From Bacteroidota bacterium (GTDB taxonomy: Bacteria > Bacteroidota > Rhodothermia > Rhodothermales > UBA10348), in the NCBI GenBank assembly GCA_029262775.1, contig JAJCYR010000005.1:3183-67182 (forward strand): a DNA stretch of 64,000 bases, read 5' to 3'. The position numbers were made by a program, and so were the translations under genes. Positions 7,993 to 43,198 of the stretch are shown here, piece after piece. How positions within the stretch are numbered: position 1 is the first letter of the stretch; each line of letters begins with the position of its first letter. The notes beneath the pieces were generated by a model. It had not been told where the DNA came from. It saw only the letters and a program-made list of their open reading frames with translations, and did not search any database.

Positions 7993-8019
7993 GGCGGTGA
8001 GGGGTTGAGGGGGTTGGAA

Positions 8020-8289: not shown

Positions 8290-8321
8290 GGGATATGGAA
8301 TCATGTTTCGATTCCTGTTCA

Positions 8322-8337
8322 TGCAAAGCGTGTGCCA
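8322..8337 (-). promoter_or_regulatory. Sigma-54 (-24/-12) promoter
   Basis: Minus strand reads TGGCACacgctTTGCA, with consensus GG-N10-GC spacing. It lies directly upstream of the small ORF and fliA, and downstream of an NtrC-type activator gene. Confidence 0.6.
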
Positions 8338-8536
8338 GTCGCTCCTGATTTCAGTCCCGATTCTCGAAAATCAGGCTTAAGGATGTCCCTGTGCGGGTTT
8401 ACGCAGAAGAACTCTGGCGCACGTCAGGAGGCGGGATCTCTGGAATGCGGAATAATATTCCCGATTCACGGTATGCCGGCGACGGAACATCTTTCCGGAA
8501 TCGGGTGCCCGACGAGATCACTGAAGAAGGGTCCGC

Positions 8537-9937: not shown

Positions 9938-10015
9938 GGAGGGAATGTTGCGTCATCAGTACGCAAATATACCGCATATCATCAGCAAGTTTCAGGTCCG
10001 GTTGCCACGCGTGTA

Positions 10016-10762
10016 TCAGGGCACCGGCAAGGTCAATGTGAACGTCGTTCCGTTCGTCTCTGAGCTTGATTCGAGCACGAGTGCGCCTTTGTGCAGTCGT
10101 GCAATCTGCTCGGCCAGCGGTAATCCCACGCCCAGATTCCATGCCTTTGTTGTATGGAACGGTTCAAAAATGAGGTCCGGGGACGTATTGTGACTGAGGG
10201 CGCCCTCGTTGTGCACGCGAATCTCAATGGAAGGAGGCGCACTGGCTGCCGAAGTTTCCCGGGCGAGGGAGACGGTTACCGTCGATCCTTCGTGATGCGT
10301 AGCTTCGAGAGCATTCGTGACGAGTGCCATGACGGCCTGCCGTAGGGCTTTCGGATCGGCCATCACACGCTGGCCATCGGGAAGAGCCACGTCAAAGCGC
10401 ACACGGCAGGCATCAGAGTCTGGCAGGATACGTTGTATCTGTAGGAGCACGTCTGTCAATACCACAGCGCGCAGTACAACAGGGGGTGGCGAGTGGTACA
10501 GATCCAGGTCCTCCAATACGGCTTCAATCCGCCGGGTGCCCTCCAGAATACGAATGCCTGACTCCCGGTCCTCTGGTGTGGCAAGCGACGTCATGAGCAG
10601 TTCCGTGTAGCCTTCAATTCCGCTCACCAGACTGCCTATCCGGTGGCGTAGCACCTGTGCGAACTCCTCGTAGGAGGTTTCCTGCGCAGGGCGCTCGCCG
10701 CGGCGTCGAACGGCGGGTCTGTTCTGGGCGATCTGTCTGGATGTTTTCGACATGGAGGTCAT
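10016..10762 (-). CDS. Soluble sensor histidine kinase (HisKA + HATPase_c, no TM segment)
   Basis: H-box VLRHRIGSLVSGIEGYTELL. N and G boxes: LVTNALEAT, FEPFHTTK, GVGLPLAEQI. Confidence 0.75.
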   Translation of the reverse strand: MTSMSKTSRQIAQNRPAVRRRGERPAQETSYEEFAQVLRHRIGSLVSGIEGYTELLMTSLATPEDRESGIRILEGTRRIEAVLEDLDLYHSPPPVVLRAVVLTDVLLQIQRILPDSDACRVRFDVALPDGQRVMADPKALRQAVMALVTNALEATHHEGSTVTVSLARETSAASAPPSIEIRVHNEGALSHNTSPDLIFEPFHTTKAWNLGVGLPLAEQIARLHKGALVLESSSETNGTTFTLTLPVP

Positions 10763-10789
10763 GAAAATATGGTTTCGGGGTCACGGCGC

Positions 10790-11653
10790 CTAATGCGTCG
10801 CGACAAAGTCAAACGAAGAAAACGGAGCGCTCGGCAGCTCGGCGGCGACGGTCTCAATGGCGTCTTCCAATTGGCAACCCAACAGGTGCCGCGCGGCGTC
10901 GGCAGACTCCATGTCATTGAACCCGGAGGCCGTCGCCGCATAACCTCCATCGGCTGCTATCTGTGCAGCGACGCTCACCAGCAGGTGGAGAAAAGGTGAG
11001 AGTGTGGACGGATGGGCCACTGGGTGCCCTCCCAGCGACATGACGTCGACCAACCCGGTCGGAAGCGCGAAGCGAAGGCCTGCGAAAGCGCCTGTTTCGG
11101 CCGCATCGAATCCGAAAAGAAGTTGTTGAGGTGTTCTCCAGTCGTGCGTATCGAACAGAATTGTCTGCGGCGAGATGTCCGCCATGGCGCCAAACTGGGA
11201 CGGGAAGGACTGCGCAAGCACCAGCGTTCCGTAATTGAACAGCAGGCCCGCGCTGAATGCCATGCCAGGCGGTGTGCCGGTCGAGCTCGGCCACGAACCC
11301 TCCGCCAGGCGGTGGGCAATGTGGGCAGTGGCGAACGCTTCCTGGCGGATGGCTCGAACCGCCTCGGGCTCCCGGATGTCCTCCTGCGTGGACATGATCA
11401 TGCGGGCAACACTCGGGGGCTCAAGGACATCAATGGCCTGTGTCAGGCTGCCCACCGTGTTTCGAAGTCCGTAATAGGCGTTGTTTGCCCTTTTAAGAAG
11501 GCCTGCGGCCGTGAACGGGTCCCGTGCCACGATCCCGGCCAGGGTAGCGGCTTCGAGGGGGAGTCCGGTTTCAATCATGTTCCTGACGCGCTCGGCCACC
11601 GACCCGAGGGGCGGTCGCAGCAGCGCAAGGCCGGTGAAGAGGGTAGGTTTCAT
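10790..11653 (-). CDS. HDOD domain protein
   Basis: PPLGSVAERVRNMI...IVARDPFTAAGLLKRANNAYYGL fits the HDOD pattern. ATG at 11653 (MKPTLFTG); the 147 upstream codons of the listed ORF overlap the next gene. Confidence 0.7.
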   Translation of the reverse strand: MKPTLFTGLALLRPPLGSVAERVRNMIETGLPLEAATLAGIVARDPFTAAGLLKRANNAYYGLRNTVGSLTQAIDVLEPPSVARMIMSTQEDIREPEAVRAIRQEAFATAHIAHRLAEGSWPSSTGTPPGMAFSAGLLFNYGTLVLAQSFPSQFGAMADISPQTILFDTHDWRTPQQLLFGFDAAETGAFAGLRFALPTGLVDVMSLGGHPVAHPSTLSPFLHLLVSVAAQIAADGGYAATASGFNDMESADAARHLLGCQLEDAIETVAAELPSAPFSSFDFVATH

Positions 11654-11664
11654 GGGATCTGACC

Positions 11665-12507
11665 TCAGGCTGCAAGTCGAAGTGCACCACTGCCGGAAAG
11701 GCGGCGGGCTTCGTCGATGTGTCCCTGCTTGATGTTCAGCGCTACAAGTCGCCGCCTCAGCAGCTGGCTCTCGGAGCGCGATTCGTAGAATTGGGTGTAG
11801 AGTACGAGAGCTTCCTCCTGCCATCCCTGCTGGGAGATCGCCTGAAGCACCTCGTCCGCTTCGGATTCGGAACGATCCCGGATCATGATCGATGCGACGG
11901 CCGCGGCATCGCCCGGATTGTTGCGGTACAGGGCGAGCCGGAAGAAGTCCTCGCGCAGAGGTGCCGGCATGGTTTCCAGGCCTTCGGGATAGGCACTCAC
12001 GAGATGATCGGCAACGTCCTCCCATTCCCCAAGCTGCCAAGACCAGGCGGCGAGCAGGGTGTGGGTCTCGGTTGAGGAGAGCACCGTATCCCACGCGGTC
12101 TGCGTATCACCGACGGCCAGATTGGACAGGTGCAGGTATGCAGCCAGAAAGTCTTTGCGACCGGCCAGCACGTTGACCTGTATCATGTGCGATGCGAGCT
12201 GATTCGGGTACAGGTCCAGTGAGCGGCCGGCCATGCGCCTGGCTGGCTCCGTGGCGCCCATTTGCCGCTGCGCTTCGGCCAGCGCCATTTCCATGGCAGC
12301 CCGTTCTTCCGGGTGGAAGATCCGGGACTGATCCATGGCCTGCCGGGCCTGGGCTGACGCGGCTTCCCAGTTGCGATTCCGCATATGGTCCCAAATGGGT
12401 GCAAGCGTCGAGAAGGGGAGGCTTGTGCAGTCGAACGAAGGTTCGGGAACGCGATACCCACTCAGTAAAGATTCCTGGCGGGGCTGGAGAGTTACTTTGC
12501 GCATCAT
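11665..12507 (-). CDS. Hypothetical helical-repeat (TPR-like) protein, first gene of the regulatory operon
   Basis: Coding-like composition, with repeated A/L-rich helix pairs. It ends 12 nt before the HDOD start. No family recognised. Confidence 0.5.
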   Translation of the reverse strand: MMRKVTLQPRQESLLSGYRVPEPSFDCTSLPFSTLAPIWDHMRNRNWEAASAQARQAMDQSRIFHPEERAAMEMALAEAQRQMGATEPARRMAGRSLDLYPNQLASHMIQVNVLAGRKDFLAAYLHLSNLAVGDTQTAWDTVLSSTETHTLLAAWSWQLGEWEDVADHLVSAYPEGLETMPAPLREDFFRLALYRNNPGDAAAVASIMIRDRSESEADEVLQAISQQGWQEEALVLYTQFYESRSESQLLRRRLVALNIKQGHIDEARRLSGSGALRLAA

Positions 12508-12565
12508 GACGGTTCGGAGGTTTGTTCATTCCGGGCATCCCGGTGTTCAGGTTCTCCCCTCGACA

Positions 12566-12581
12566 TGCAAACGGCCTGCCA
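12566..12581 (-). promoter_or_regulatory. Sigma-54 (-24/-12) promoter
   Basis: Minus strand reads TGGCAGgccgtTTGCA with the correct spacing, about 60 nt upstream of ATG 12507. Confidence 0.55.
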
Positions 12582-12705
12582 ACCCCGAAATACGTACCAA
12601 ACGTAGCAAATCCGGCTAAACACGGGCCGTGGTGCGGTAATCCTTTCCGCCTGGGCCGCAATTCTTTCCCCGTGCAGGGACAATGGAGAGTACCGGCCAT
12701 AACGA

Positions 12706-12742
12706 AATGAGGCCCGGAGCGCAGTGCGCTCCGGGCCTCATT
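12706..12742 (-). terminator. Intrinsic terminator after rpmA
   Basis: Perfect 14-bp stem gaggcccggagcgc/gcgctccgggcctc, extendable to about 17 bp, followed by ATTTCGTT on the minus strand. Confidence 0.6.
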
Positions 12743-12788
12743 GAAACCCTCGGTTGTCCGACCTGCGGACAGTCGAATTTCCTGAAAC

Positions 12789-13043
12789 CTACTCGCTGTC
12801 CACGTGGACGAACTTGCGGTCACCCTGTCCACGCGAAAAGCGGACCTTGCCGGTCTGCGTGGCGAAGAGGGTGTCGTCGCCCCCACGGCCCACATTGCTT
12901 CCCGGATGAAATTTTGTGCCACGCTGGCGGACAATGATGGCGCCTGCCTGCACAAACTCGCCACCATAAGCCTTGATGCCAAGCATCTGGGGGTTGGAAT
13001 CCCGACCGTTCTTGGTCGATCCCATTCCTTTCTTATGTGCCAT
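12789..13043 (-). CDS. rpmA: 50S ribosomal protein L27
   Basis: [24 protein letters not shown]... is a canonical L27. Confidence 0.95.
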
Positions 13044-13114
13044 TGCTGAACTCCTTTTGGATTTGGTTCGTGTCGGATCGGACCCGGGTCAGATCCTGCT
13101 CATTATGGTGCAGA

Positions 13115-13429
13115 TCAGCCGGCGTTGAGCGCGGTCACCTTGATCTGTGTGTAGGGCTGCCTGTGGCCCCGTTTGACCTTGTAGCCCTTGCGGCGCTTTT
13201 TCTTGAACACAAGCACCTTGTCTGCCTTGAGGTGGTCGAGCACCGTAGCGTCGACCGATGCACCTTCGACGGTCGGCGTTCCCACCGATACGTTCTCGCC
13301 GTCGGCAACGAGGAGCACCTTGTCAAACGAGAGCGTGGAAGAGGTATCTGCCGACTGGCGGGGGATGTACAGCGTGTCGTCCTGGGACACCTTGTACTGC
13401 TTACCGGCGATTTCTACGATCGCGTACAT
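13115..13429 (-). CDS. rplU: 50S ribosomal protein L21
   Basis: MYAIVEIAGKQYKV... is a canonical L21, upstream of rpmA. Confidence 0.95.
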   Translation of the reverse strand: MYAIVEIAGKQYKVSQDDTLYIPRQSADTSSTLSFDKVLLVADGENVSVGTPTVEGASVDATVLDHLKADKVLVFKKKRRKGYKVKRGHRQPYTQIKVTALNAG

Positions 13430-13539
13430 ATCTTGCCTCTGCTTTGGGCGGCGGGTTGGTTACCGTCGCGAGAGTGTATACGAAAATATTCAGTCCATCA
13501 ATATACGGCACGCATTGCAGCCGTTCAAAGCATGCGGAT

Positions 13540-14196
13540 ATGGAAGAATTGAGAATTCAGGGGACAGGTGTCGTGCTCCGGCCCGGAAAACTGGTATGTG
13601 TGGGGCGGAATTACGCTGCCCATGCACGCGAAATGAAGAGCGACGTTCCCGCGGAGCCCATGCTCTTTCTGAAGCCTGCCAGCAGCCTTATTGGCCCACG
13701 TGGACAGATTCAGCTACCGCCCGAGTCGCAGGATGTTCACCATGAGGTCGAACTGGTAGTGATTCTCGGAAGGCACCTGCGCTGCGCCAGTCCCGACGAA
13801 GCCCTCGGCGCAATCGCGGGACTGGCGGTGGGGCTGGACCTGACGGCGCGTGACATCCAGCAACGTGCCAAGGAGAAAGGCCATCCGTGGAGTGTATCGA
13901 AAGGTTTCGACACATTCGCTCCGCTTGGCCCCATTGTGGAGGCCGACGCCGGGCAGCCGCGTCGCATCTCACTGAAAGTGAACGGCGAGCTGAAGCAGGA
14001 GGCCATGACGAGCGACATGCTCTTCCCAGTGGCCGACCTGTTGGCGTATGTGTCTGGGATCTTTACGCTTGAACCGGGCGATCTGCTCTTTACGGGCACG
14101 CCCGAAGGGGTAGGTCCCATTCGCAATGGCGACGTGCTGTTGGCAGAGATCGAAGGACTGCCGCCGCTGGAAATCACCGCCGTCCGTACTCGTTGA
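13540..14196 (+). CDS. Fumarylacetoacetate hydrolase (FAH) family protein
   Basis: KLVCVGRNYAAHAREM...MLFLKPASSL...HHEVELVVILG...GDLLFTGTPEGVG. ATG at 13540. Confidence 0.85.
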   Translation: MEELRIQGTGVVLRPGKLVCVGRNYAAHAREMKSDVPAEPMLFLKPASSLIGPRGQIQLPPESQDVHHEVELVVILGRHLRCASPDEALGAIAGLAVGLDLTARDIQQRAKEKGHPWSVSKGFDTFAPLGPIVEADAGQPRRISLKVNGELKQEAMTSDMLFPVADLLAYVSGIFTLEPGDLLFTGTPEGVGPIRNGDVLLAEIEGLPPLEITAVRTR

Positions 14197-15406
14197 GGTA
14201 GGCCATCGCGAATTCGGTCGGCGTGAGGCGGCGGCGGATGAGTTCGGGGGTTCCATCCGTGTGAATCCAGACTTCGGCGGGTAACGGGCGCATGTTGTAG
14301 GTCGATGAGAGTGACATGCCGTAGGCACCCGTATCGAGAATAGCCACGATATCGCCTTCGGCCAGTTCCGGTACGCCCCGGTCCCGGGCAAAAAAATCGG
14401 CCGATTCGCATATATTGCCGACAACATCGTACGTCTTTGGCGTACCGTCCGGACGCGACAGGTTGCAGATTGTGTGCCACGCGTCATAGAGAGCTGGACG
14501 GAGGAGGTGCCCCATGCCGGTATCGAGGCCGGCAAACGTTCTGCTGCCCGTTCTTTTGATGGTGTTCACCCGGCTGAGTAGTACACCCGACTCGGCCGTG
14601 AAGTAGCGTCCCGGCTCAAACCGGATTTCCAGACTCTTTGACGGGTGGGAGGCCACAAATTTCCGGATCGAGGCCACAATGGTCGATCGAAACTCCGCCA
14701 GGTCAAGTGGCGCCTCCCCTGCGCGGTAGGGTACGCCGAGGCCGCCGCCTACATTGATGAACTGCAGATCATTGAGGCGCCGGGCCGTTTCGAGAATGAC
14801 AGCAGCCGCATTCCACAGGATTTCGGTGCTCAGGATGCCGCTGCCAATATGCTGATGCAGTCCGACAATTCGGAGGTCATACCGAGCGGCAACGTCCAAT
14901 ACGCGGTCCATCTGTTCGACCGGAATGCCGAATTTGCTTCGGTCGCCCCCCGTGACCACGTGAGCGTGGTGGCCCGCGCCGATCTGCGGGTTGATGCGGA
15001 CGCAGACGTCGCTCTCGCCGAACGCCTCGCCGAGCCGACGGAGCCCCGACAGTTCTCCGATGTTCATGGTGACGCCGGCCTCCACGGCATACCGCATTTC
15101 ATGGTCGGTCATGTTGTTGGCCGAGTACAGGATGTGGGCCGGGTCAAAACCGAGGCGTAGCACAAGTTCGAGCTCTCCAGGCGATACGGCGTCGATTCCC
15201 AGCCCACATCGGCGCATGACGTCGAGAAGCGGCGGGCAGTGGTTTGCCTTCATGGCGTAGAGCAGGCGCACGGGAATGCCCTCCAGATGCGCCTTGAACT
15301 CGTTAATGCGTGCGAGGATGGTGGCCTCATCGTAGACGTATACGGGCGTGCCGTGCCCGGCGGCGATCTGCTTCAGCAGGCCAGGATGAAACGGGTGGGT
15401 GGACAT
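14174..15406 (-). CDS. lysA: Diaminopimelate decarboxylase
   Basis: PLP-Lys motif YAMKANH, GGGLGVPY and CESAD. Group IV decarboxylase fold. Confidence 0.9.
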   Translation of the reverse strand: MSTHPFHPGLLKQIAAGHGTPVYVYDEATILARINEFKAHLEGIPVRLLYAMKANHCPPLLDVMRRCGLGIDAVSPGELELVLRLGFDPAHILYSANNMTDHEMRYAVEAGVTMNIGELSGLRRLGEAFGESDVCVRINPQIGAGHHAHVVTGGDRSKFGIPVEQMDRVLDVAARYDLRIVGLHQHIGSGILSTEILWNAAAVILETARRLNDLQFINVGGGLGVPYRAGEAPLDLAEFRSTIVASIRKFVASHPSKSLEIRFEPGRYFTAESGVLLSRVNTIKRTGSRTFAGLDTGMGHLLRPALYDAWHTICNLSRPDGTPKTYDVVGNICESADFFARDRGVPELAEGDIVAILDTGAYGMSLSSTYNMRPLPAEVWIHTDGTPELIRRRLTPTEFAMAYLNEYGRR

Positions 15407-15439
15407 GATGGTGGGCGGGTCAGGTCTCGGATGGTTCGG

Positions 15440-16192
15440 TCAGAGCAGCAGTTCGGCGACAATGAAATCTGCAATCAGGATGTTTACACAGCTCACGACA
15501 ACCGCTTGGGTAGTGGATGAGCCGACGCCTTGGGCGCCCCCATGCGTGTTGAAGCCTTTCCAGCAGGCGATTGACGTGATGATGTATCCGAAAGCGAGCG
15601 ATTTCGTCATGCCATACATGGCGTCGAAGGGCGCAAAGTAGGTTCGCGCACCGCGCACGAATGCATCCATCGAAAGAAAGCCCATGTATTCGCCAGCAAA
15701 GCCGCCAGCCAGCACGGCTACGAGCGCGGAGGCCACGTACATGGCGGGAAACATCAGCAGGCCGGCAAGTACGCGGGGGAGCACGAGGTGGCTGACGCTG
15801 TTCAGGCCCATGGCTTCGAGGGCATCGATTTGTTCGGAGACCTGCATGGTGCCGATTTCGGCGGCAACGCTCGCGCCCACACGCGAGGCCATGACGAGGC
15901 CGGGGACGAGGGCGCAGAGTTCGAGCATAAGCGTGGGAACGACAATGGCGCCGATGGCATCTTCCGTGAGGACGGTATTCTGAAGCTGGTATGCGGTCTG
16001 AAGCGTCGTCACGACGCCGGCAAAGGCGCTGGCGAGCATGACGACAGGAAGCGCATCGAATCCGAGGCGGACGGCCTGCTGGAAGACCTCGCGGCGCAGG
16101 TGCACAGCCGAACGGGCAGAGGAGATGGCTTTGCACATGAACAGCACATAGTTGCCAAGGGACGACACGAGACTGGTGACGGCCGTGATCAT
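15440..16192 (-). CDS. mlaE: MlaE-family ABC transporter permease
   Basis: MlaE/Ttg2B core (VGASVAAEIGTMQVSEQIDALEAMG). ATG at 16192 overlaps the upstream TGA (ATGA). Confidence 0.85.
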   Translation of the reverse strand: MITAVTSLVSSLGNYVLFMCKAISSARSAVHLRREVFQQAVRLGFDALPVVMLASAFAGVVTTLQTAYQLQNTVLTEDAIGAIVVPTLMLELCALVPGLVMASRVGASVAAEIGTMQVSEQIDALEAMGLNSVSHLVLPRVLAGLLMFPAMYVASALVAVLAGGFAGEYMGFLSMDAFVRGARTYFAPFDAMYGMTKSLAFGYIITSIACWKGFNTHGGAQGVGSSTTQAVVVSCVNILIADFIVAELLL

Positions 16193-18864
16193 GATAGCGG
16201 GATGCTGGATGAGGTACGGGCAGCCGGATTGGTCGATGCCGTGTCCCGGCGGCGCGCATCGCGAAGGGTGCGCACGAGAAGGCGCAGGCTGTCGGGCCGG
16301 AAGCCGCGCTGGCGATTGGCGCTTCCAATTCGGAAAGCCAGCGTCCACTGGGTCATGAGCGTGTACCACGCCCTGAAGAGGGAGATCTCTGGGTCGTATA
16401 TGTGTGTTGCTTCTGAGGACACGCCGTTCAGTTCAAGGATTTTGAATCCGTCACCATGGACGAGACGGTCGGGGTCGGGCACCCGAATATCGTATCGACC
16501 GAAAAAGAAACCGTCTGTCTGACGGGATATCCGGTCAATCGTTTCCAAGAAGACGGGGTTCATGTGGCGGCGGCCATTGAGGAAGAGCGCGCCGCGGGAG
16601 TGGGTGCCGACTTCGGCGAGAGGGATTCTTGTGCCCTTGTCAAAGACGTGACCGAGGTCGGAGGAGAACCGCTTCATGAAGAGAGGCGCCATGCTGACGG
16701 CGCGCTCGTGATCGAGAATGAGCCGTTCGAGGGTGCGGCGTCCATCGGCGCGCAGCCAGACGGGGCGCTTTTCGGTGACGGAGAAGATCCGGCCGGAGGG
16801 CTGGCCGGGCTCGCGCACGTAAAAAACGCCGAGTTCGAGGCCGTCCACGAACTCCTGGGCAATGATGTCGTCCTCGTGGCAGGTGAAATACTGGTCAACG
16901 TCGGCCTGGGTGCGGGCAATCCAGACGCCCTGGCCCCGCTCGCCGATGTCGGGTTTGAGTACAATGGGGAAGGACAGGCCGTGCTGCTCGATAAAGGCCA
17001 TGACGCGCCCCGTCCGGTCGTTGGCCGCCCCGGGAATGAGCCGCCAGATGGCGACGTGCTGCTCGCTGTGGTGCAGGAGTTCCAGGATATCCCGCTTCCG
17101 TTCGCCCAGGAAGCCACCGGTGAACATGCCGGGATTGGATGCAGTGAAGAGGGTCAGGGAGCGGTACCGGATGGCAACGAGCAGTATCCAGACGACGACG
17201 GGGGCGTAGAAGATGGGTATCGGCCAGAATTCCCACCGCGAAATGCGGTGCCAGCGGGAGAGGAGCCGGCGCCGGCCGTTGTGCGTCGTGAGCGGGATGC
17301 CAATGTGGATGGTCAGGTAGAGCACGACCACGAGGACGACGAGCATCCAGATCGCGTAGGCTTCGTAGGTGGCGTAGAAATCGAGGATTTCCGTCCCGGC
17401 CCACGCCGAGAGTCCCGTGATGAGGGGTGTCCAGACAATGGCCGCCGCCGTGAAGTATCCCAGGAAAATCCAAAAGGGCGTTCGCAGTATCCCGGCGGCG
17501 ACGTACGTGGGAAGGCGCGTACCCGGCACGAACCGGCTGGCCAGAATGACGTGAGGTCCTTTTTCCCGGAACCAGCTGGCGCCGCGGTCGAGTTGGGCCT
17601 CCGTGAGCATCCAGGAAAACGGGGGAATGGCGAGCAGTCGACGTCCCAGCAGGCGCCCGGCGGCATAGAGGGCCACGTCGCCGATCACAATACCGAGGAA
17701 GGCGGCGAGGAGCGCCAGTTCGATGGACATGGTCCCGCGTGCGGCCAGGAGACCGGCTCCGATGGCCGAAAGGTCCTCACTCACGAAGGATATGAAAATG
17801 ATGAGCACGACCAGAATGAACAGGGCGAAGCCCGAAGAGGGGGGGACGCTCGTGGCGTCGAACGGGCGCTCGGCGGCGCGTATGCGCTCTGGTAGGGCTG
17901 TGGCGCGGGTCGGCGCCTCCTGGCGCTCGACCCGCGCCACAAACCTCGCAATGTGTCCGGCCGTCATTTCGGCTTCCTGGAAGGGTAGACCATGACCAAG
18001 GGACTCGAGGCTCACGAGCTCACTCTGTGGCACAATGCGGTGGTGTTCCAGCGCGGCTTCATAGGGCACGAGTGGATCGTCCACGCCGTGGATGATCTGC
18101 ATGGGCCCTTCCCAGGCCATGAGGTACTTCCGCAGTGGCCGCTGGTCCGAGTCGTAGAAGTTCCGGGCGTAGGATCTGCCCAGAATGGCATTGTCAAACC
18201 ATCCGAAGTGCGGTACCAGTTCGGAGACGGTCCAGATGGCGGCGAGCTGCAGGGCATGAATTGCTCTGTTCATGTGGTATGTACCCATCAACTCCAATTC
18301 CTGCACGCCGATCGCCGAAAGGAGCTGGACAGAGGCCACGCGGTCGGGAGACTCGTGTGCGGCCTCTATGGCGATGCCGCCGCCCATACTGTACCCCACG
18401 ATGTGTGCCCTGCGAATACCCAGCGAGTCCTGCAGTGCCATCAGGTAGCGCGCGTGGGCCGCAATGGAGTAGTCGTCAATGCGTAGGGTTGACCCTCCAA
18501 AACCTGGCATATCGGGCGTAATAACGCGAAAACGGCCATCCTCGGAGAGCGCCCTGTGGAGGGCCCGCATGGAGCGGGATGCAACCGGGCTGCCGTGCAA
18601 CACGAAGAGTACCGGCCGGGCCGAGTTGCCAGCCGCAGAAGTATCCGGCAGCGAATGGCCAGGCGCCGAATCGAGATAGGCAATGCGTACGGGCTTGGCG
18701 CCCGGCCGCGGCCGGGCCATGCGCACGTACTGATCATCGAGGGGACCGGGATCGTTCTGCGTCCAACGCGTCACATGTGATGCTGCGAGCAGCACCAACC
18801 AGGCTATGAAAAGTCGCCCCGTGAGCCGCCGCAGGCGACCCGTGGATGCCGCCTGTTTCGTCAA
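16189..18864 (-). CDS. Triple-fusion protein: alpha/beta hydrolase, DedA/VTT membrane domain, ATP-grasp ligase
   Basis: N-terminal anchor, then a hydrolase (HGSPVAS..., nucleophile elbow GYSMGG), a DedA-like region (SEDLSAIGAGLLAARG...ASRFVPGTRLP) with further TM helices, and a C-terminal ATP-grasp (IVLKPDIGERGQGV...EFVDG...ILELNG). TTG start lies 2 nt after the DinB stop. Confidence 0.75.
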   Translation of the reverse strand: MTKQAASTGRLRRLTGRLFIAWLVLLAASHVTRWTQNDPGPLDDQYVRMARPRPGAKPVRIAYLDSAPGHSLPDTSAAGNSARPVLFVLHGSPVASRSMRALHRALSEDGRFRVITPDMPGFGGSTLRIDDYSIAAHARYLMALQDSLGIRRAHIVGYSMGGGIAIEAAHESPDRVASVQLLSAIGVQELELMGTYHMNRAIHALQLAAIWTVSELVPHFGWFDNAILGRSYARNFYDSDQRPLRKYLMAWEGPMQIIHGVDDPLVPYEAALEHHRIVPQSELVSLESLGHGLPFQEAEMTAGHIARFVARVERQEAPTRATALPERIRAAERPFDATSVPPSSGFALFILVVLIIFISFVSEDLSAIGAGLLAARGTMSIELALLAAFLGIVIGDVALYAAGRLLGRRLLAIPPFSWMLTEAQLDRGASWFREKGPHVILASRFVPGTRLPTYVAAGILRTPFWIFLGYFTAAAIVWTPLITGLSAWAGTEILDFYATYEAYAIWMLVVLVVVLYLTIHIGIPLTTHNGRRRLLSRWHRISRWEFWPIPIFYAPVVVWILLVAIRYRSLTLFTASNPGMFTGGFLGERKRDILELLHHSEQHVAIWRLIPGAANDRTGRVMAFIEQHGLSFPIVLKPDIGERGQGVWIARTQADVDQYFTCHEDDIIAQEFVDGLELGVFYVREPGQPSGRIFSVTEKRPVWLRADGRRTLERLILDHERAVSMAPLFMKRFSSDLGHVFDKGTRIPLAEVGTHSRGALFLNGRRHMNPVFLETIDRISRQTDGFFFGRYDIRVPDPDRLVHGDGFKILELNGVSSEATHIYDPEISLFRAWYTLMTQWTLAFRIGSANRQRGFRPDSLRLLVRTLRDARRRDTASTNPAARTSSSIPLS

Positions 18865-18866
18865 AA

Positions 18867-19421
18867 TCAGGGCCTGTTGACTCTTTGTGGTACGTGGCTG
18901 CCCGTGATCGTTTTCGAGCGATGCTGCAGCGTGGACGGTGCCACGCCAAAATCCGGCGTTGGCTCAACGCCCTGGATACGGAGAATGAGGGCGATCAGGG
19001 CATAATGATGGATGGTGTGGGCCTGGAGATATTGCAACTCCCGTTTGATGGTGGAGTCGGACAGGGGGGAATCATTTTCTGGGGCGTTTGAGGCGGCCAT
19101 TTTGATCTCGAGGGGAGCGTCGACGGTGCTCATGGCATCGAGATCATGAATGATGCCTTCCATGATGTCCATGGCGCTCTCGCGGCTCGATGAAATCCTG
19201 GGGTCGCGTTTCCGGGCGTCATAGTCAACATGACCAGAGGCGAGGCCCTCCATGAACAGCTGATAATGCTCCACGATATGGCGCATGTGCTCGCCAACGC
19301 CAGACGGGAAAAGCGTGGCGTGCGTGGCTGTGTACTCGGCATCGGTAAGCGAGGCGAGGAGGTCAATGCCCTGCCAGAGGTGTAGCTGGTTAAGGGCTGC
19401 GAGTGTGTCTGTGCGCTTCAT
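18867..19421 (-). CDS. DinB-fold (DinB_2-like) protein
   Basis: Four-helix pattern with spaced His residues (HMRHIVEHY...HTIHHYALI). ATGA overlap with the upstream gene. Confidence 0.65.
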   Translation of the reverse strand: MKRTDTLAALNQLHLWQGIDLLASLTDAEYTATHATLFPSGVGEHMRHIVEHYQLFMEGLASGHVDYDARKRDPRISSSRESAMDIMEGIIHDLDAMSTVDAPLEIKMAASNAPENDSPLSDSTIKRELQYLQAHTIHHYALIALILRIQGVEPTPDFGVAPSTLQHRSKTITGSHVPQRVNRP

Positions 19422-20188
19422 CTGGCTTGCGTTGTGGGTGCCTGCAAATATAGCTCTTCTACGGAACGGAAAGCGGCGATCGACAACGTTTTACGGTCTG
19501 CCGGCTCAATGGGTGCGCTCCCGTAGCGGATACGTGCATTGAAGCGGGAAAACGTTAGCACGCGCCAAATATGTTCTCCGAACGACATGTCACCCCACCA
19601 GCAGAGGTCTATCGTGGCATCGCCGCCCGGCAGGTCGTAGGATATGGCGGCGGTGTGGACGGGCAGCCCCAATTCTGCCGGTACGGACATGAGCGGCGCC
19701 TTGAAGGGGAGCACGCTTGCCCCGGACGATGATGTGCCCTCCGGAAAGAATACGATGCCGTCGCCATCCGCAAGCACGCTTCGCATGTCGTCAGTGACGC
19801 GCGGAATGTCCCGAATGCGGGAGCGCTCTATGAAGATCGTCCCGAAGGTCTGTGCCAACCAACCAATGCCCGGCCAGTGGGCCAGGTCGGCGCGCGATAC
19901 CAGACGGGCTTTGGCGGTGGCTATGACCACCAGGATATCCAGGTAGCCGAGGTGGTTTGCCACAAGGCAGAAGGGGGGCTCGGGCGGGGACCCGCCGACA
20001 TGCAACCGGCCGCCCATGATGCGAAGCAGACCGCGCGCCCAGCACCCGGTAATTGTATGGCGCCACGTGACGCGTCCGTGAACGGTCCTGTGTTTGAACA
20101 CACGACCAATCCACCATGTCAGGGTGAGGAAAAAGGTGACCAGGACCATGGCAACCATCCGGCCGCCCGCCCGCACATGCTTGATCAT
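19418..20188 (-). CDS. Lysolipid acyltransferase (PlsC/LPLAT family, OlsA-like)
   Basis: HX4D motif ANHLGYLD, FPEGT motif and an N-terminal TM helix. ATGA overlaps on both sides. Confidence 0.8.
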   Translation of the reverse strand: MIKHVRAGGRMVAMVLVTFFLTLTWWIGRVFKHRTVHGRVTWRHTITGCWARGLLRIMGGRLHVGGSPPEPPFCLVANHLGYLDILVVIATAKARLVSRADLAHWPGIGWLAQTFGTIFIERSRIRDIPRVTDDMRSVLADGDGIVFFPEGTSSSGASVLPFKAPLMSVPAELGLPVHTAAISYDLPGGDATIDLCWWGDMSFGEHIWRVLTFSRFNARIRYGSAPIEPADRKTLSIAAFRSVEELYLQAPTTQAR

Positions 20189-20988
20189 GAAATGGTATAG
20201 AACGCCAAGTCGGACTGCTGCAGACTCTTCACGTCGAAGAGAGCAAGGAAATCTATTGTCTTGAATTCCGTATCCATGGCCGGAGGTCCACAGATGCGGG
20301 CTCCAAAACTAAGGTACGCGCGCATGAGGCGTGGGGGACGGATGGGCGGGAGCGTGGATCCCTCGGGAATTTCATTACAACAGGCGTAATCGGGCTGTGG
20401 CAGAATGCAGAGATCAGGGTGCATGTGCCCGTGCTCCTTCAAATAGGCGAGCGTGGCGCTGCCTTCCCGAGGATCCTGGCTTGTGATCGAACAGCAGCCA
20501 AAAAGGAAGCGTGAGCCTGTTGTCTGCAGGTAGTAACCGATTCCCTTCCAGAGTAGATAGAGTACCCTGAGACTCCGGTGCTCACGTAGAATACAGGCTC
20601 GACCTGTTTCCACACTTGTATCCAGTATCGATGGCGGAACGTTCGAAAAAATAAACTCGTTTTCGGAATACCATCCCTGGCCGCGGTGGGCCATGGTCGA
20701 GGTCTGCATCCGGTATGTACCGACCACGCGTCCGGATGGAACGTGACGGACGTAGAGGTGGTGGAACACATCGTCGTACTGGTCGATGTCTCGGCCCGTC
20801 TCGTGCGACGCGTCCAGACCTTCGTTCAGTTCCAGATTGAACACATGGTAGCGAAGCTCCTGAACGGCATGGAGGTCTTCCCGAGAGTGCACCCATCCCA
20901 GTTCGTACGCGCCATTGACGAACGTCCGCTCGGGAGCGGTGCTTTCGGGTGACCTCAGGCCAGTAGATATGTCGGGCTGTGCGTTCAT
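20185..20988 (-). CDS. GNAT-family N-acyltransferase, OlsB/GlsB-like
   Basis: LRYHVFNLELNEG...DQYDDVFHHLYV...VVGTYRM...ETGRACILREHR...PRLMRAYLSFGA matches the Acetyltransf_5-type lipid N-acyltransferase pattern. Confidence 0.75.
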   Translation of the reverse strand: MNAQPDISTGLRSPESTAPERTFVNGAYELGWVHSREDLHAVQELRYHVFNLELNEGLDASHETGRDIDQYDDVFHHLYVRHVPSGRVVGTYRMQTSTMAHRGQGWYSENEFIFSNVPPSILDTSVETGRACILREHRSLRVLYLLWKGIGYYLQTTGSRFLFGCCSITSQDPREGSATLAYLKEHGHMHPDLCILPQPDYACCNEIPEGSTLPPIRPPRLMRAYLSFGARICGPPAMDTEFKTIDFLALFDVKSLQQSDLAFYTIS

Positions 20989-21051
20989 GACCGTGTTTAA
21001 CGTATACTACGTACGCTTTGTTGTCATCAGCATAATCAATACGTAAAGATC

Positions 21052-21417
21052 ATGTCGGACGTCACGCTTTTCACGTGGAATGAGATGCCCAAGGAAGACT
21101 TGTCACCCCTGATATCGCGCCGCCTGGTGAGTGGTGAGCGCATGATGTTGGCGCATGTCTACCTCAAAAAAGGCAGTATTGTACCGCGGCACCAACATGA
21201 CAACGAGCAGATCACCTATATCCTGGAGGGCGCCCTCCGCTTTTTTATTGGCGAAAACGGAGACCAGATAGTTGATGTGCGCGCCGGGCAGGTTCTTCTT
21301 ATTCCTTCCAACGTGTGGCATAAGGCGGAAGCGCTCGAAGACACGCTCGATGTGGATGTGTTCAGCCCACCGCGCCAGGATTGGCTCGACGGTTCGGACG
21401 CATATCTTCGGGGATGA
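21052..21417 (+). CDS. Cupin domain protein
   Basis: Cupin motifs PRHQHDNEQITYILEG and LIPSNVWH. Confidence 0.75.
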   Translation: MSDVTLFTWNEMPKEDLSPLISRRLVSGERMMLAHVYLKKGSIVPRHQHDNEQITYILEGALRFFIGENGDQIVDVRAGQVLLIPSNVWHKAEALEDTLDVDVFSPPRQDWLDGSDAYLRG

Positions 21418-21441
21418 CCAGGCGCACGTGTCAACACGCCT

Positions 21442-22071
21442 CTAAAAGGCCCCACCCTTCAGTGAGCGCAAATAGTTCTTGAAGCCGGGCTTGTTGTAGT
21501 TGGCCATGCCCGAATGGACGGTCCCGAGCGTGCCATCCGAACCGATGACATAGGTCGTTGGCAGCACACGACTGGTATAGGGCTCAGGAAGTGGGGAGGC
21601 AAGGCGGTAGACCGGCAGCGTGTATCCCTTCTGCTGCATGAAGACCCGTGCTTCCTGCGCCGTATCGTCCGTGGAAATCATCACAAAAATAATATCTTCC
21701 TCCTTGACATCCTGGTAAAGGTCCTCAATGAAGGGCATTTCGGCCAGGCAGGGGGGGCACCAGGTGGCCCAGATATTCATGAAAATGGGCTTTCCCCTGA
21801 ATTCCGACAGCGAGACGTGCTCGCCGTCCAAGGTGACCAACTCGACGTCGAAATTGGCAGGCTGCCGGTTCTCCTCCGCCCAGTTCACGTCTGCCTGGAA
21901 CAGTCCGGTTGCCAGGACGGCCTGTTGCAACCAGCCTTGTGCCGTCGTTCCCGTGTCGGTGAACCGGAAAAAGGCAAAAATGCCGATTACCACCGCCCAC
22001 TCGGCCAGACTGCGCAGCTTGGAACGGCGCTTTGGAGAGGGTTTCTGCTTCTTGTTTTCCGTACGGGTCAC
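21442..22071 (-). CDS. TlpA-family thiol:disulfide oxidoreductase, membrane anchored
   Basis: WATWCPPC active site. I place the start at GTG 22071 because the listed N-terminus (to 22143) is encoded by the repeat arm. Confidence 0.75.
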   Translation of the reverse strand: MTRTENKKQKPSPKRRSKLRSLAEWAVVIGIFAFFRFTDTGTTAQGWLQQAVLATGLFQADVNWAEENRQPANFDVELVTLDGEHVSLSEFRGKPIFMNIWATWCPPCLAEMPFIEDLYQDVKEEDIIFVMISTDDTAQEARVFMQQKGYTLPVYRLASPLPEPYTSRVLPTTYVIGSDGTLGTVHSGMANYNKPGFKNYLRSLKGGAF

Positions 22072-22084
22072 GTGTCTCTTTTTT

Positions 22085-22377
22085 AGAAGGCTGTTGAATA
22101 AGTAGAGGGTCTCTCGAACGAGGGTCTTACGCGGTGCAGACAAGGAAGGGCGACGACGCGATGCCGTAGCATCGTGGAGGAGCCATGACGAACGTATGCG
22201 CCCGTAACCCCCTCGTTCCCTTCGGGTTCGGGCGGCATGACAACATCTTCCGCGTTGTCCCTTCTATGCGTAGCTATGGCTATGCAGACGTCGGGACGCC
22301 TTGAAGAGGCCGGGTATCCGGCCGTGTTGTCATGGCGCTCCGAACGAGAGCGCCCTCTACTTGTTCAACAGCCTTCT
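22085..22377. mobile_element. MITE-like non-autonomous element, copy 1 (~293 bp)
   Basis: Terminal inverted repeats agaaggctgttgaataagtagag (22085-22107) and ctctacttgttcaacagccttct (22355-22377), each with a subterminal hairpin. The internal ~70-nt core is shared with copy 2. Confidence 0.5.
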
Positions 22378-22457
22378 GGTGCACGCCCCTTGGATTTCGA
22401 CGACGCACTCATGTTACGCAGCGCCCGGCGCGTTCATGCGGCGCATGGTCACATCGC

Positions 22458-23279
22458 TCAGATTTCGAACGTCATTCCTTCGAATGCGGCCGTGCAGGCG
22501 ATATCCCCGCCGAGCGCCTCGCATGCAGCGAGGTGGAGTGCATCGATCTCCAGATCGCTTCGCTGGAAATCGTGGTGGAACAGGATCAAATGGCCTACCT
22601 GCGCATCGCGCGCCAGTTGGCACACATCCGGGAGGAAGCTGTGTCCCCAACCGGTGCGCTGCGCCCGCTCTTCGTCCAGGAACTGGGTATCGTGAACAAG
22701 TACGTCGGCCCCGCGGCAAAATTCGAGGAACGTACCGAAGGGGACGCCACCATGCTCCGCATCGAGTTCATTATCCGTCATGTAGACCATGCTGCGCCTG
22801 GGCCCCTGAATCCGGAATCCGAAACATGTACCGGTGTGGTTCATCTCCTGCCAGGACACGTGCAGGCCACGCTGGGACAATACGTCATCCATGCTGCGCC
22901 CATCCACACGTATATCGGCTTGGATGTCATCGCGGCACAGCGGAAAATGAATGCCGTCAAACTGCGACATGGCCTGTCGGCCAACGTCCGGTGCAGGCTC
23001 TGTCAGAAAAACGATCTGATTGCCTGGGCACATGAGCGGGGCAAAGAACGGGAGGCCCTGGATATGATCCCAGTGGGGATGAGAGAGGAGCACATAATAG
23101 GTGTGGGGCGGCTCGGGCGCTTCAAGGCCCATGGCCGCAAGGCCGGTACCGGCGTCAAGAATGAGTGTCGCACCGTCGTCAACGGAGATGGAGATACAGG
23201 ACGTGTTGCCGCCGTAGCGAACCGTGTGGGGGCCGGGTGCGGGCAGGGAGCCGCGCGCGCCCCAGATGTGCACCTTCAT
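22458..23279 (-). CDS. MBL-fold metallo-hydrolase
   Basis: SHPHWDHIQG (HxHxDH) and later His/Asp ligands. Confidence 0.8.
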   Translation of the reverse strand: MKVHIWGARGSLPAPGPHTVRYGGNTSCISISVDDGATLILDAGTGLAAMGLEAPEPPHTYYVLLSHPHWDHIQGLPFFAPLMCPGNQIVFLTEPAPDVGRQAMSQFDGIHFPLCRDDIQADIRVDGRSMDDVLSQRGLHVSWQEMNHTGTCFGFRIQGPRRSMVYMTDNELDAEHGGVPFGTFLEFCRGADVLVHDTQFLDEERAQRTGWGHSFLPDVCQLARDAQVGHLILFHHDFQRSDLEIDALHLAACEALGGDIACTAAFEGMTFEI

Positions 23280-23353
23280 GCGCCTGGAGTTTGAACGATA
23301 TCAAGGTAATAAGAAGCGGGGACAATCGGCAGGTTCATTCGTTCGGAGTCGGC

Positions 23354-24124
23354 ATGTTGTTCCACCGTATATACCGGAATGAACAGGTCCGGGATTGGGT
23401 TGTCTTCGTGCATGGCGCCGGGGGATCGTCCGTGGTCTGGTTCAAACAGATCAGGGCATTCCGCCCCTGGTTCAATATTCTCATGGTCGATCTGCGGGGC
23501 CACGGCCGGTCGGCCGCGTACGGTGGCAATGGCAGCCCGTACTCCCTCGAGGGTATTTCCAGTGATATCCTGGACGTCATGGACCACCACAGAATAATAG
23601 ACGCACATTTCGTCGGAGTTTCACTCGGTACGGTACTGATCCGCACGTTGCAGGAGCGTCATCCGACGCGTGTGCGTTCGGCCGTATATGCAGGGGCCGT
23701 GGTCGGGTTCACGGCGCCCGCACGTTTGCTGATTGCTGCCGGGCATTCGCTCAAATACATCGTTCCCTTCCAGGCTCTGTACGCGGTATTTGCCTGGATC
23801 ATCATGCCTGGCAGAAAGGCGCAGGAAGCGCGCAGGGTGTTCCGGCGGGAAGCCAGATCGGTCCGACCGGCCGAATTCCGGCGGTGGCTGCGCCTGACGC
23901 GCGAAGTGCATTCGAAACTGGCTGCCCGGTCCACGTTGGCGCGTAGCTCTCCGACCCTCTACGTCATGGGCGCGCGGGACTACCTGTTTCTGGCGCCGGC
24001 GCGCCGCGCCGTAGAGACCGATCCGTCCGCTGTACTCAATGTGGTGGAGCGGGCCGGTCACGTGTGTAATATCGAGCAGCCCGCGCTCTTCAACCGGATT
24101 GCTATCGCCTTCTTGAGACGGTGA
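23354..24124 (+). CDS. Alpha/beta hydrolase
   Basis: VVFVHGAGGS, nucleophile elbow GVSLG, C-terminal GHVCN. ATG at 23354. Confidence 0.8.
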   Translation: MLFHRIYRNEQVRDWVVFVHGAGGSSVVWFKQIRAFRPWFNILMVDLRGHGRSAAYGGNGSPYSLEGISSDILDVMDHHRIIDAHFVGVSLGTVLIRTLQERHPTRVRSAVYAGAVVGFTAPARLLIAAGHSLKYIVPFQALYAVFAWIIMPGRKAQEARRVFRREARSVRPAEFRRWLRLTREVHSKLAARSTLARSSPTLYVMGARDYLFLAPARRAVETDPSAVLNVVERAGHVCNIEQPALFNRIAIAFLRR

Positions 24125-25070
24125 ACTGCACCAGATTGTCGAGCGCGGTGCGGGCATCGCCCGGAGGGAGTGCTGTGAGCTCGCCGCGCGCCGCGTCCGC
24201 ATGGTGGATCATGCGTCCACGCGCATAGTCGAGGCCTCCATACTGCTTCACGAACGCCGCCACCTGCGCCACATCCCCATTCGATTTTTCCGACTTGCCG
24301 ACGAGCGCCAGTATGCGTCGGCGCTCACGGGACGGAGCTTCCCGAAGGGCGTGAATGAGCGGAAGCGTCATTTTTTTCTCCCGAATATCGATTCCAAGCG
24401 GTTTTCCAACGTCGGTCTGTCCAAAGTCGAACAGATCGTCACGAATCTGGAATGCCAGTCCGAGCTGCTCGCCGAATCGGCTCATGAGTTCGACCGTCTC
24501 CCCGTCGGCACGGACACTCACCGCGCCGCACCGCGTGCAGGCTGACAGCAACGAGGCGGTTTTGTCTGAAATAATACGAAAATACGTCTCCTCGTCGATG
24601 TCCAACTTCCGGGATTTCTCAATCTGCAGCAACTCTCCCTCGCTCATGCGCCTGACGGCATCGGACACCACGTGCAGCAGGTCGTACTCCCTGGCATCGA
24701 GCGCCAGGAGTAGCCCGCGGCTCAGCAGAAAGTCGCCCATCAGGACAGCAATCTTGTTCTTCCAGAGGGCATTGATCGAAAATACGCCCCGGCGCCGGTC
24801 GGCATCATCGACCACGTCGTCGTGCACCAGCGTTGCCGTATGCAGCAGTTCTACAAGCGCTGCTCCCTGATAGGTGGCACCGGTGACCTCGCCGCAGGCG
24901 TGAGCCGACAGCAGAACGAGAGTAGGACGAAGCTGTTTGCCCTTCTTGCGAAGCAGGTAGCGCACAATCAGATTCAGGATGCGGACGTCCGAACGCATGG
25001 CAGACCTGAAATAGGTCCTGAACTCGTCCAGTTCCGCTGAAACTGGTTGTTGGATGTCTTTCAGCGTCAT
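24102..25070 (-). CDS. ispB: Polyprenyl diphosphate synthase (octaprenyl/heptaprenyl type)
   Basis: DDxxD motifs LVHDDVVDDADRRRG and FQIRDDLFD. ATG at 25070. Confidence 0.88.
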   Translation of the reverse strand: MTLKDIQQPVSAELDEFRTYFRSAMRSDVRILNLIVRYLLRKKGKQLRPTLVLLSAHACGEVTGATYQGAALVELLHTATLVHDDVVDDADRRRGVFSINALWKNKIAVLMGDFLLSRGLLLALDAREYDLLHVVSDAVRRMSEGELLQIEKSRKLDIDEETYFRIISDKTASLLSACTRCGAVSVRADGETVELMSRFGEQLGLAFQIRDDLFDFGQTDVGKPLGIDIREKKMTLPLIHALREAPSRERRRILALVGKSEKSNGDVAQVAAFVKQYGGLDYARGRMIHHADAARGELTALPPGDARTALDNLVQFTVSRRR

Positions 25071-25089
25071 GCGCGATATACTCCGTCTT

Positions 25090-27086: not shown

Positions 27087-27138
27087 GGGCTCCGCAAGAT
27101 AGCGCACCCATTTATATCATCCGGCGTATCTTGCCCAA

Positions 27139-43115: not shown

Positions 43116-43198
43116 AACACGGAAAGATCGATCCAGAAAAAGGTCCATAGCTGGTGCTGGATTTTTTATGTTGGAGATTCACCCACGCGCTGGTATAC

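Follow-up and report, generated by a model that had tools for sequence, protein, structure and literature searches.

In a 64,000-nucleotide stretch of DNA from a Bacteroidota bacterium of the Rhodothermales (UBA10348; contig JAJCYR010000005.1, positions 3,183 to 67,182), here called the window, one gene on the minus strand (16189..18864) encodes an 891-residue protein, P0001, in which a transmembrane (TM) anchor, an alpha/beta hydrolase, a DedA domain, a membrane anchor helix and an ATP-grasp domain are joined in a single chain. This gene follows OlsB-like, OlsA-like and DinB-like genes and is translationally coupled to them. Based on these features, the fusion protein is proposed to be a single inner-membrane protein of a conserved aminolipid-tailoring pathway that would ligate, flip and hydrolyze its lipid, a tentative reading to which we give slightly less than an even chance. 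It builds on the active sites, which are observed to be intact, and on the order of the domains, the operon linkage and the spread across phyla; all of the chemistry is what we infer. An earlier annotation made from the DNA letters without database searches (the sequence-only reading) had described one polypeptide with hydrolase, DedA/VTT and ATP-grasp domains. That description holds, as the open reading frame (ORF) spans exactly 16189-18864 and three Pfam matches lie above their gathering scores. The strand, which that reading did not give, is the minus strand; a plus-strand reading of 16189-18864 was rejected because it is full of stops.

The gene consists of one 891-codon ORF with a TTG start and a TGA stop. 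The TTG sits 2 nt past the stop codon of the upstream DinB-like gene, and ahead of the first hydrophobic helix (residues 14-32) it is the sole canonical start in frame. An absence of ATG before this helix had been claimed earlier, and indeed no in-frame ATG, GTG or second TTG occurs between the upstream stop and the helix; the two nearest homologues likewise open with a non-ATG 'L' at the same position. Every motif quoted in the sequence-only reading is present in the translation: GYSMGG (157-162), IHGVDDPLVP (258-267) and LGHGLPF (289-295) in the hydrolase part, SEDLSAIGAGLLAARG (362-377) and ASRFVPGTRLP (442-452) in the DedA part, and IVLKPDIGERGQGV (634-647), AQEFVDGLELGV (669-680) and FKILELNG (807-814) in the ATP-grasp part.

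An AlphaFold2 (AF2) model built on an alignment of 102 full-length homologues, the same alignment on which residue invariance was scored, has a mean predicted local distance difference test score (pLDDT) of 90.6 and a predicted template-modelling score (pTM) of 0.73. In the N-terminal half, a long helix (2-35) is followed by an alpha/beta domain (46-313) and a short conserved linker. The hydrophobic part of the long helix (TM0, residues 14-32; 18769..18825, minus strand) is recognized from hydropathy and the AF2 helix as an uncleaved signal-anchor with a K/R-rich cytoplasmic N-tail. The alpha/beta hydrolase (residues ~46-313; 17926..18729, minus strand), predicted to be periplasmic, matches Pfam Abhydrolase_1 (PF00561; 7e-27, 95.1 bits against a gathering cut-off of 25.8). 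Its G-x-S-x-G elbow is present, and the catalytic triad of Ser159 (in GYSMGG), Asp263 and His291 is invariant. The cap also carries invariant polar residues specific to this family (Glu191, Asn199, Asp240, Gln241, Arg242 and Arg245). In Foldseek, the domain matches many esterases, human ABHD6 among them, with a probability of 1.00 and template-modelling scores (TMt) of 0.63-0.76. The match to the membrane-anchored phospholipase A PlaF (entry 6i8w) covers 339 columns; the fold is shared, whereas identity is ~22% and points to no specific subfamily. In PlaF, an N-terminal TM segment anchors a domain that lies in the periplasm. When the whole 891-residue model is used as the query, Foldseek returns matches only to esterases and lipases.

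The DedA/VTT domain (residues 345-526; 17287..17832, minus strand) is supported by Pfam VTT_dom (PF09335; 4.8e-14, 53.3 bits against a cut-off of 33.9) and by the AF2 model, in which two re-entrant helices and three TM helices are arranged as re-entrant helix 1 (345-361 and 363-375), TM 381-412, cytoplasmic helices, re-entrant helix 2 (438-459), TM 464-486 and TM 504-526. Glu363 and Asp364 on re-entrant helix 1, and Arg444 and Arg450 on re-entrant helix 2 (R-x5-R), are invariant. An acidic tip on the first re-entrant helix and two Arg residues on the second form the signature of COG0586 DedA proteins, in which these membrane-buried residues are presumed to serve in proton coupling and in the binding of an anionic head group (bioRxiv 10.1101/2023.01.04.522824). 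The domain is thus of the COG0586 (UptA/YqjA) type, with Asp and two Arg, and not of the scramblase-like COG0398 type suggested by the label of a lipid-scramblase-type domain in the sequence-only reading. The best NCBIfam match of this part is UptA (NF052604; 1.8e-13, 51 bits against an equivalog cut-off of 250), and by these scores the domain resembles UptA and is not an orthologue of it. The arrangement of a VTT domain with two re-entrant helices, an acidic tip, two Arg and three TM helices is shared with Escherichia coli YqjA/YghB and Bacillus subtilis UptA. The partners reported in fusions of COG0586 DedA domains are PAP2 and rhodanese (bioRxiv 10.1101/2023.01.04.522824), and neither a hydrolase nor an ATP-grasp domain; in contrast to COG0586 DedA proteins, the fusion protein carries enzymes on both ends.

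Between the DedA and ATP-grasp domains lies a segment (17104..17283, minus strand) consisting of an amphipathic Arg-rich helix (528-542), a fully hydrophobic 'WEFWP' helix (549-566) and a conserved NP-containing return (567-587). This segment, residues 528-587, is proposed to be a monotopic anchor that holds the ligase at the cytoplasmic face. The ATP-grasp ligase itself (residues ~588-877; 16234..17103, minus strand) is identified by Pfam, invariant residues, AF2 and Foldseek. The Pfam RimK ATP-grasp match (6e-6, 26.3 bits against a cut-off of 21) is partial and covers residues 621-674 only, and sequence searches of the PDB with this part give marginal matches (0.008 or weaker). Modelled alone, residues 528-891 reach a pLDDT of 93.5 and a pTM of 0.91, with the anchor segment at a pLDDT of at least 95. 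This model matches CphA1/CphA2, the GshF module and Ddl/VanA in Foldseek (E 3e-10 to 1e-6, probability 1.00; template-modelling score ~0.4-0.5 over 255-300 columns, identity about 10-18%). All of these enzymes phosphorylate an amino-acid or peptide carboxylate, to which they join an amino acid; one of them joins a hydroxy acid instead. Lys637, Arg643, Gly644, Gln670, Glu677, Lys699, Arg790, Asp792, Glu811 and Asn813 are invariant. At the presumed ATP and Mg sites, the fusion protein shares conserved Lys, Arg, Asp, Glu and Asn residues with its best structural matches, the CphA G domain, the GshF module and Ddl/VanA; these roles are assigned by motif position (VLKPD, GRYDIR, ELNG) rather than by residue-level structural superposition. 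Besides the low identity, the fusion protein may differ from these enzymes in its N-terminal subdomain: in the AF2 model only ~65 residues with a single strand connect the anchor helix to the VLKPD strand, where a full N-terminal substrate-binding ATP-grasp subdomain is expected, and membrane-associated helices appear to occupy this place. With confident models that lead from the hydrolase to esterases and from residues 528-891 to CphA, GshF and Ddl, and with signature residues invariant in the 102 sequences, all domain assignments of the sequence-only reading are confirmed; the substrate class and the genomic context discussed below were not part of it.

The arrangement of these domains across the membrane can be approached by comparison. 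In YqjA, cysteine accessibility assigns the tip region, and the residue that precedes re-entrant helix 1, to the periplasm; the loop that comes next and the C-terminus are cytoplasmic (bioRxiv 10.1101/2021.10.18.464800). Transferred to the fusion protein, this map puts the hydrolase end in the periplasm. The mean K/R counts over the 102 homologues fit this YqjA-like orientation, with 2.2 in the N-tail (D/E 0.4), 5.9 in loop 410-440, 6.5 in loop 525-548 and 1.0 in loop 486-505. Relatives that contain only the DedA and ATP-grasp domains begin either with short tails free of K/R or with genuine signal peptides, one of which has an LVSC lipobox; because these directly precede the DedA domain, its N-terminal end, and so the hydrolase, is expected to be exported. 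TM0 is absent from the short-tailed two-domain forms and in the triple fusion precedes the ~300-residue hydrolase, which suggests that it works as a signal anchor that exports this domain. In a 1121-residue relative, P0200, TM0 follows a TANGO2 domain of cytoplasmic type, which starts with Met-Cys, and an Arg-rich stretch. The ATP-grasp domain is placed in the cytoplasm because it needs ATP. In relatives that consist of the ATP-grasp part alone, 5-9 K/R lie within the 17-28 residues ahead of the hydrophobic helix, which favors reading helix 549-566 as an anchor, monotopic or re-entrant, over reading it as a span. Taken together, the comparison points to a topology with the N-terminus inside, the hydrolase in the periplasm, the DedA domain in the YqjA orientation and the ATP-grasp domain at the cytoplasmic face. 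The suggestion in the sequence-only reading of coupled chemistry on opposite membrane faces gains support from this comparative topology, by inference, whereas its alternative of an edit-and-religate cycle finds no specific support.

The genomic context supplies the link to aminolipids. On the same strand, the operon opens with an OlsB-like N-acyltransferase (PF13444; 20185..20988), followed by an OlsA-like lyso-aminolipid O-acyltransferase of the PlsC family (19418..20188), a DinB_2-family protein (18867..19421), the fusion gene and an MlaE-family permease (15440..16192). Neighboring genes are separated by 2 nt or overlap by 4 nt: the OlsA-like gene overlaps both of its neighbors by 4 nt, the stop of the DinB_2 gene is 2 nt ahead of the TTG, and the start codon of the MlaE gene overlaps the stop codon of the fusion gene. 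The OlsB-like protein scores 110 bits against the OlsB equivalog cut-off of 320, and the OlsA-like protein 138 bits against the OlsA cut-off of 300; both reach the family level in Pfam and fall below the equivalog level, so that the amino acid may not be ornithine. By family membership, the two form an aminolipid synthase pair to which no particular amino acid is assigned, and in opening with them the operon resembles the OlsB/OlsA ornithine-lipid pathway. A lysA gene beside the operon was considered as a hint of a lysine lipid and rejected, since it is a bona fide LysA whose adjacency is confined to the closest Rhodothermales-type relatives.

This arrangement is found again in a 2-Mb Rhodothermales-like contig, in KSB1, in Blastocatellia and in another Bacteroidota metagenome-assembled genome. 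Partner frequencies were counted by running hidden Markov models (HMMs) of the partners against all ORFs at the 69 loci with at least 3 kb upstream and retaining same-strand neighbors. An OlsB-like partner occurs at 77% of these loci, PlsC-like and DinB-like partners at 67% each, and a TANGO2-like partner at 41%; at least one of these four core partners is found at 63 of the 69. The survey of architecture and neighbors that the sequence-only reading had suggested returned a conserved setting as well as more than 100 full-length homologues. TANGO2 was not found in the window. MlaE occurs downstream at 9% of the loci (6/69), in the closest Rhodothermales-type relatives only, and no MlaF or MlaD was seen among the ORFs examined in window positions 8000-28000. 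The neighborhood of OlsB, OlsA, DinB and TANGO2 genes points, by gene content, to acyloxyacyl aminolipids. A Rieske/ferric-reductase membrane protein is encoded at 26% of the loci (18 loci); the Rieske and 'unk261' HMMs cross-matched through fused ORFs, and only the Rieske/ferric-reductase count was kept.

Several further genes recur around the family. A Ferric_reduct+Rieske membrane protein and a ~255-residue protein with no Pfam match are often encoded just upstream of the OlsB-like gene (L002 3894-5722; L005 1-1657), and could be a lipid hydroxylase/desaturase pair of the same pathway. Directly downstream of the fusion gene, a conserved ~230-255-residue protein, also free of Pfam matches, is encoded in L004 (9650-10348) and at seven other loci, several of them from Acidobacteriota. 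In L013, L019 and L021 (Desulfobacteraceae, Verrucomicrobiota), the OlsB-like domain lies within a 612-621-residue protein encoded downstream of the fusion gene; judged by size, our guess is that these are bifunctional synthases of the OlsF type. About 2 kb upstream of the operon (window 22458-24124), the minus strand encodes an MBL-fold hydrolase and the plus strand a second, stand-alone alpha/beta hydrolase (23165-24124); an alpha/beta hydrolase like the latter is also found near the L001 cluster.

The family is widespread and modular. When 5.8 billion proteins were searched with a word index, 3046 matches were obtained, of which the best 120 are full length (775-909 residues, 87-100% query coverage, 45-82% identity) and, where named, carry generic labels (for example 'alpha/beta fold hydrolase' or a JGI esterase/DedA label). 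In a scan of one genome per species, a relative is encoded in at least 564 species. The best 80 of these belong to Bacteroidota/Rhodothermia/Balneolaceae (including the cultured Fodinibius salsisoli), KSB1, Calditrichota, Acidobacteriota, Gemmatimonadota, Verrucomicrobiota, Planctomycetota, Desulfobacteraceae and Pseudomonadota. The family and its linkage to aminolipid genes span about ten phylum-level lineages. Scanned in full with HMMER, 1.8 billion cluster representatives yielded 2432 clusters that match the ATP-grasp part. The best 150 were sorted by length and the WEFW motif, with architecture checked by Pfam or sequence on a sample: 57 are of triple-fusion size (at least 780 residues), 34 are Met-started and of DedA-ATP-grasp size (500-620 residues), and 12 are Met-started and of stand-alone ATP-grasp size (at most 440 residues), the last retaining the Arg-rich and 'WEFWP' helices. 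P0200 combines TANGO2, an Arg-rich stretch, a TM helix, alpha/beta hydrolase, DedA and ATP-grasp in one chain and, as read from its domains, physically ties bacterial TANGO2 to the hydrolase-DedA-ATP-grasp system. A DinB-like C-terminus is encoded directly upstream of one two-domain (DedA-ATP-grasp) gene, and the C-terminus upstream of one stand-alone ATP-grasp gene was read by eye as TANGO2-like. These modular variants would serve as Rosetta-stone evidence of joint function, with DedA-ATP-grasp as the probable core module. In full-text searches that combined DedA with ATP-grasp, aminolipids, OlsB or TANGO2, no paper on either the protein or the cluster was found, and aminolipid reviews from 2024 and 2026 do not mention the family.

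The proposed pathway would begin with an acyloxyacyl amino-acid lipid made in the inner leaflet by OlsB and OlsA. At the cytoplasmic face, the ATP-grasp domain would turn a carboxylate, for which the free alpha-carboxylate on the head group of the lipid is the likeliest candidate, into an acyl phosphate and ligate an amino acid or an amine to it; this chemistry is proposed because the nearest structural relatives perform it. The lipid would then reach the outer leaflet through the COG0586-type DedA domain, where the buried Asp/Glu and the two Arg would suit an anionic head group and proton coupling. In the periplasm, the Ser-Asp-His domain may strip an ester-linked acyl chain or, alternatively, take off the added group and thereby control lipid levels. 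In the closest relatives, MlaE may hand the lipid on towards the outer membrane. A precedent for the ligation step is the formation of cerilipin, in which taurine is transferred to the carboxylate of ornithine lipid in an ATP-dependent reaction that is known biochemically and whose gene has not been identified; this amide ligation on the head-group carboxylate matches the proposed activity (PMC12971839). The known enzymes that tailor ornithine lipids, such as the hydroxylases OlsC/D/E and the methylase OlsG, differ in that none is an ATP-grasp, DedA or alpha/beta-hydrolase fusion.

The closest parallel in logic is the MprF system, in which an aminoacyl-phosphatidylglycerol synthase and flippase works with the periplasmic aminoacyl-phosphatidylglycerol hydrolases PA0919/VirJ/AcvB and AhyD (PMC6103681). 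By analogy only, and with no relationship in sequence or fold, both systems would combine a cytoplasmic enzyme that adds to the head group with a translocator for the lipid and, outside the cytoplasm, a hydrolase that keeps levels in check. MprF uses aminoacyl-tRNA and another flippase fold, whereas here ATP would be used via ATP-grasp and translocation would rely on DedA, all in one chain; neither the MprF synthase domain (DUF2156/GNAT-like) nor the MprF flippase fold has a Pfam or NCBIfam match in the fusion protein. Each domain belongs to a known superfamily, and the protein is not an orthologue of UptA, MprF or any characterized ATP-grasp enzyme, nor probably of OlsI, an alpha/beta-hydrolase fold able to acylate lyso-aminolipids (PMC12493201). 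What appears to be new is the enzyme architecture, in a module that would tailor aminolipids and export them.

Several points weigh against this proposal. No member of the family has a known lipid product, substrate or activity, and the presumed substrate of the ATP-grasp domain is read from fold neighbors alone, at 15-18% identity. In NCBIfam, the DedA domain comes nearest to undecaprenyl-phosphate transporters rather than to a known transporter of aminolipids. Housing the ligase together with a hydrolase in a single polypeptide would also create a futile cycle if the hydrolase merely reversed the ligase. None of the four core partners is nearby at 6 of the 69 loci (~9%), and a 519-residue hydrolase-DedA paralogue without ATP-grasp (L088 5001-6560, Pyrinomonadaceae) occurs outside aminolipid clusters, next to genes for TPR and peptidase M14 proteins. 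Finally, helix 549-566 could be a true TM helix, which is the weak point of the topology.

An unlikely alternative is an activate-flip-transfer relay, in which a VanA-like ligase would form an energy-rich ester between an amino acid and a lipid hydroxyl, the DedA domain would flip the product and the hydrolase-fold domain would transfer the group to a periplasmic or outer-membrane acceptor, following the logic of Dlt and MprF. The order of ligase inside, flippase and hydrolase fold outside suits the carrying of ATP energy into an ATP-free compartment, an ester-forming D-Ala-D-lactate ligase is among the fold neighbors, and alpha/beta-hydrolase folds that act as acyltransferases exist, OlsI being one (PMC12493201). 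One candidate hydroxyl would be the free 3-OH of a lyso-aminolipid; at 19 of the 69 loci, about a quarter, at least one of the other three partners is present without a PlsC-type O-acyltransferase. Yet OlsA, kept at most loci, would occupy this 3-OH, the best fold matches are amide-forming ligases, and the neighborhood suggests no acceptor.

Placing both soluble domains in the cytoplasm is improbable. The hydrolase fold would then be an OlsI-like O-acyltransferase or thioesterase beside the ligase, and the DedA domain would do no more than export the finished lipid. This arrangement is suggested by the O-acylation of lyso-ornithine lipid by OlsI (PMC12493201), by the six Arg among the 35 residues that precede the DedA domain and by span counting, which puts both domains on one side if helix 549-566 truly spans. 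However, it needs a DedA domain inverted relative to YqjA, with at least 18 K/R in periplasmic loops, and conflicts with the signal peptides and lipobox found directly before DedA in relatives. It also leaves TM0 without a purpose, and the TANGO2-TM0-hydrolase fusion argues for one membrane crossing between TANGO2 and the hydrolase.

A role in polyprenyl-phosphate or cell-envelope metabolism, in which a UptA-like transporter, a Ddl-like ligase and a periplasmic esterase are fused and the OlsB linkage is only indirect, is very improbable. It would draw on the undecaprenyl-phosphate transporter UptA as the best NCBIfam match, on the Asp/Arg/Arg signature of COG0586, on Ddl among the fold neighbors and on the six loci that lack all four partners. 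Against this, the UptA score is far under the equivalog cut-off (51 versus 250 bits), the linkage to OlsB- and OlsA-like genes is same-strand and often overlapping in many phyla, and peptidoglycan or glycan genes are not consistently nearby.

The remaining alternative, that an assembly or frameshift artefact unites separate genes, deserves practically no credence: it could appeal to contigs that break in the hydrolase-DedA linker and to a relative with two ORFs, but the break coincides with an inverted repeat, the two-ORF relative is itself frameshifted, and the homologues already refute it, since more than 100 full-length sequences from independent assemblies share the frame and the conserved linker. 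Contigs from three biofilm-metagenome runs are identical to the window, with zero substitutions or indels; these runs are probably the window's own source and hence do not count as independent support. All of their matching contigs break at 17909-17931, where an 11-bp perfect GC-rich inverted repeat (GGCGCGGGTCG ... CGACCCGCGCC, window 17902-17937) lies within the sequence that encodes the linker, and therefore give no read-level proof across it. Continuity of the linker is accepted because homologues in independent assemblies conserve it; an uninterrupted ORF is also found in such assemblies at 82% and 79% identity (L006 and L007). Among apparent exceptions, L089 (5001-7759), from a long-read metagenome assembly, was rejected as a split version because its ORFs of 415 and 453 residues are a frameshifted copy in which the second ORF starts only halfway through the DedA motif PGTRLP; it is either an assembly error or a pseudogene. 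An apparent 3.5-kb match in L073 was rejected as an ordinary 879-residue gene. The three-domain ORF is a genuine fusion, and the merge artefact that the sequence-only reading had named as a possible refutation is rejected.

Elsewhere in the window, a 'Rieske/ferric-reductase' match at 43154-45172 was rejected as a pathway partner, since it is an unrelated Rieske-thiamine-pyrophosphate enzyme. In this 672-residue ORF (plus strand), a Rieske [2Fe-2S] domain at the N-terminus is joined to a thiamine-pyrophosphate enzyme complete with its three domains, an unusual pairing.

Aminolipids replace phospholipids under stress and phosphate limitation and, to our knowledge, only a handful of the steps that tailor them have been identified, and none of the proteins that transport them. 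If the aminolipid-tailoring proposal is correct, the family would offer a candidate for an orphan ATP-dependent head-group ligation. In the strongest form of the proposal, which we consider doubtful, the protein would be a tRNA-independent, ATP-driven synthase, flippase and hydrolase in a single chain. Its ATP-grasp domain would then be the first enzyme identified that extends an aminolipid head group at the carboxylate, giving a lipodipeptide or an amine-amidated aminolipid, and would represent the enzyme class sought for cerilipin since the 1970s. Its DedA domain would be the first to be assigned an aminolipid substrate and, together with the DinB and TANGO2 partners, the protein would define a new branch of membrane lipids in about ten bacterial phyla. 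The DedA superfamily, whose mechanism is still debated, would gain a concrete substrate hypothesis, and synthesis, translocation and periplasmic processing could be studied in a single polypeptide. TANGO2 is a human disease protein of disputed function, and its bacterial operon context would provide a testable handle on this question. Experiments are made feasible by the cultured carrier Fodinibius salsisoli.

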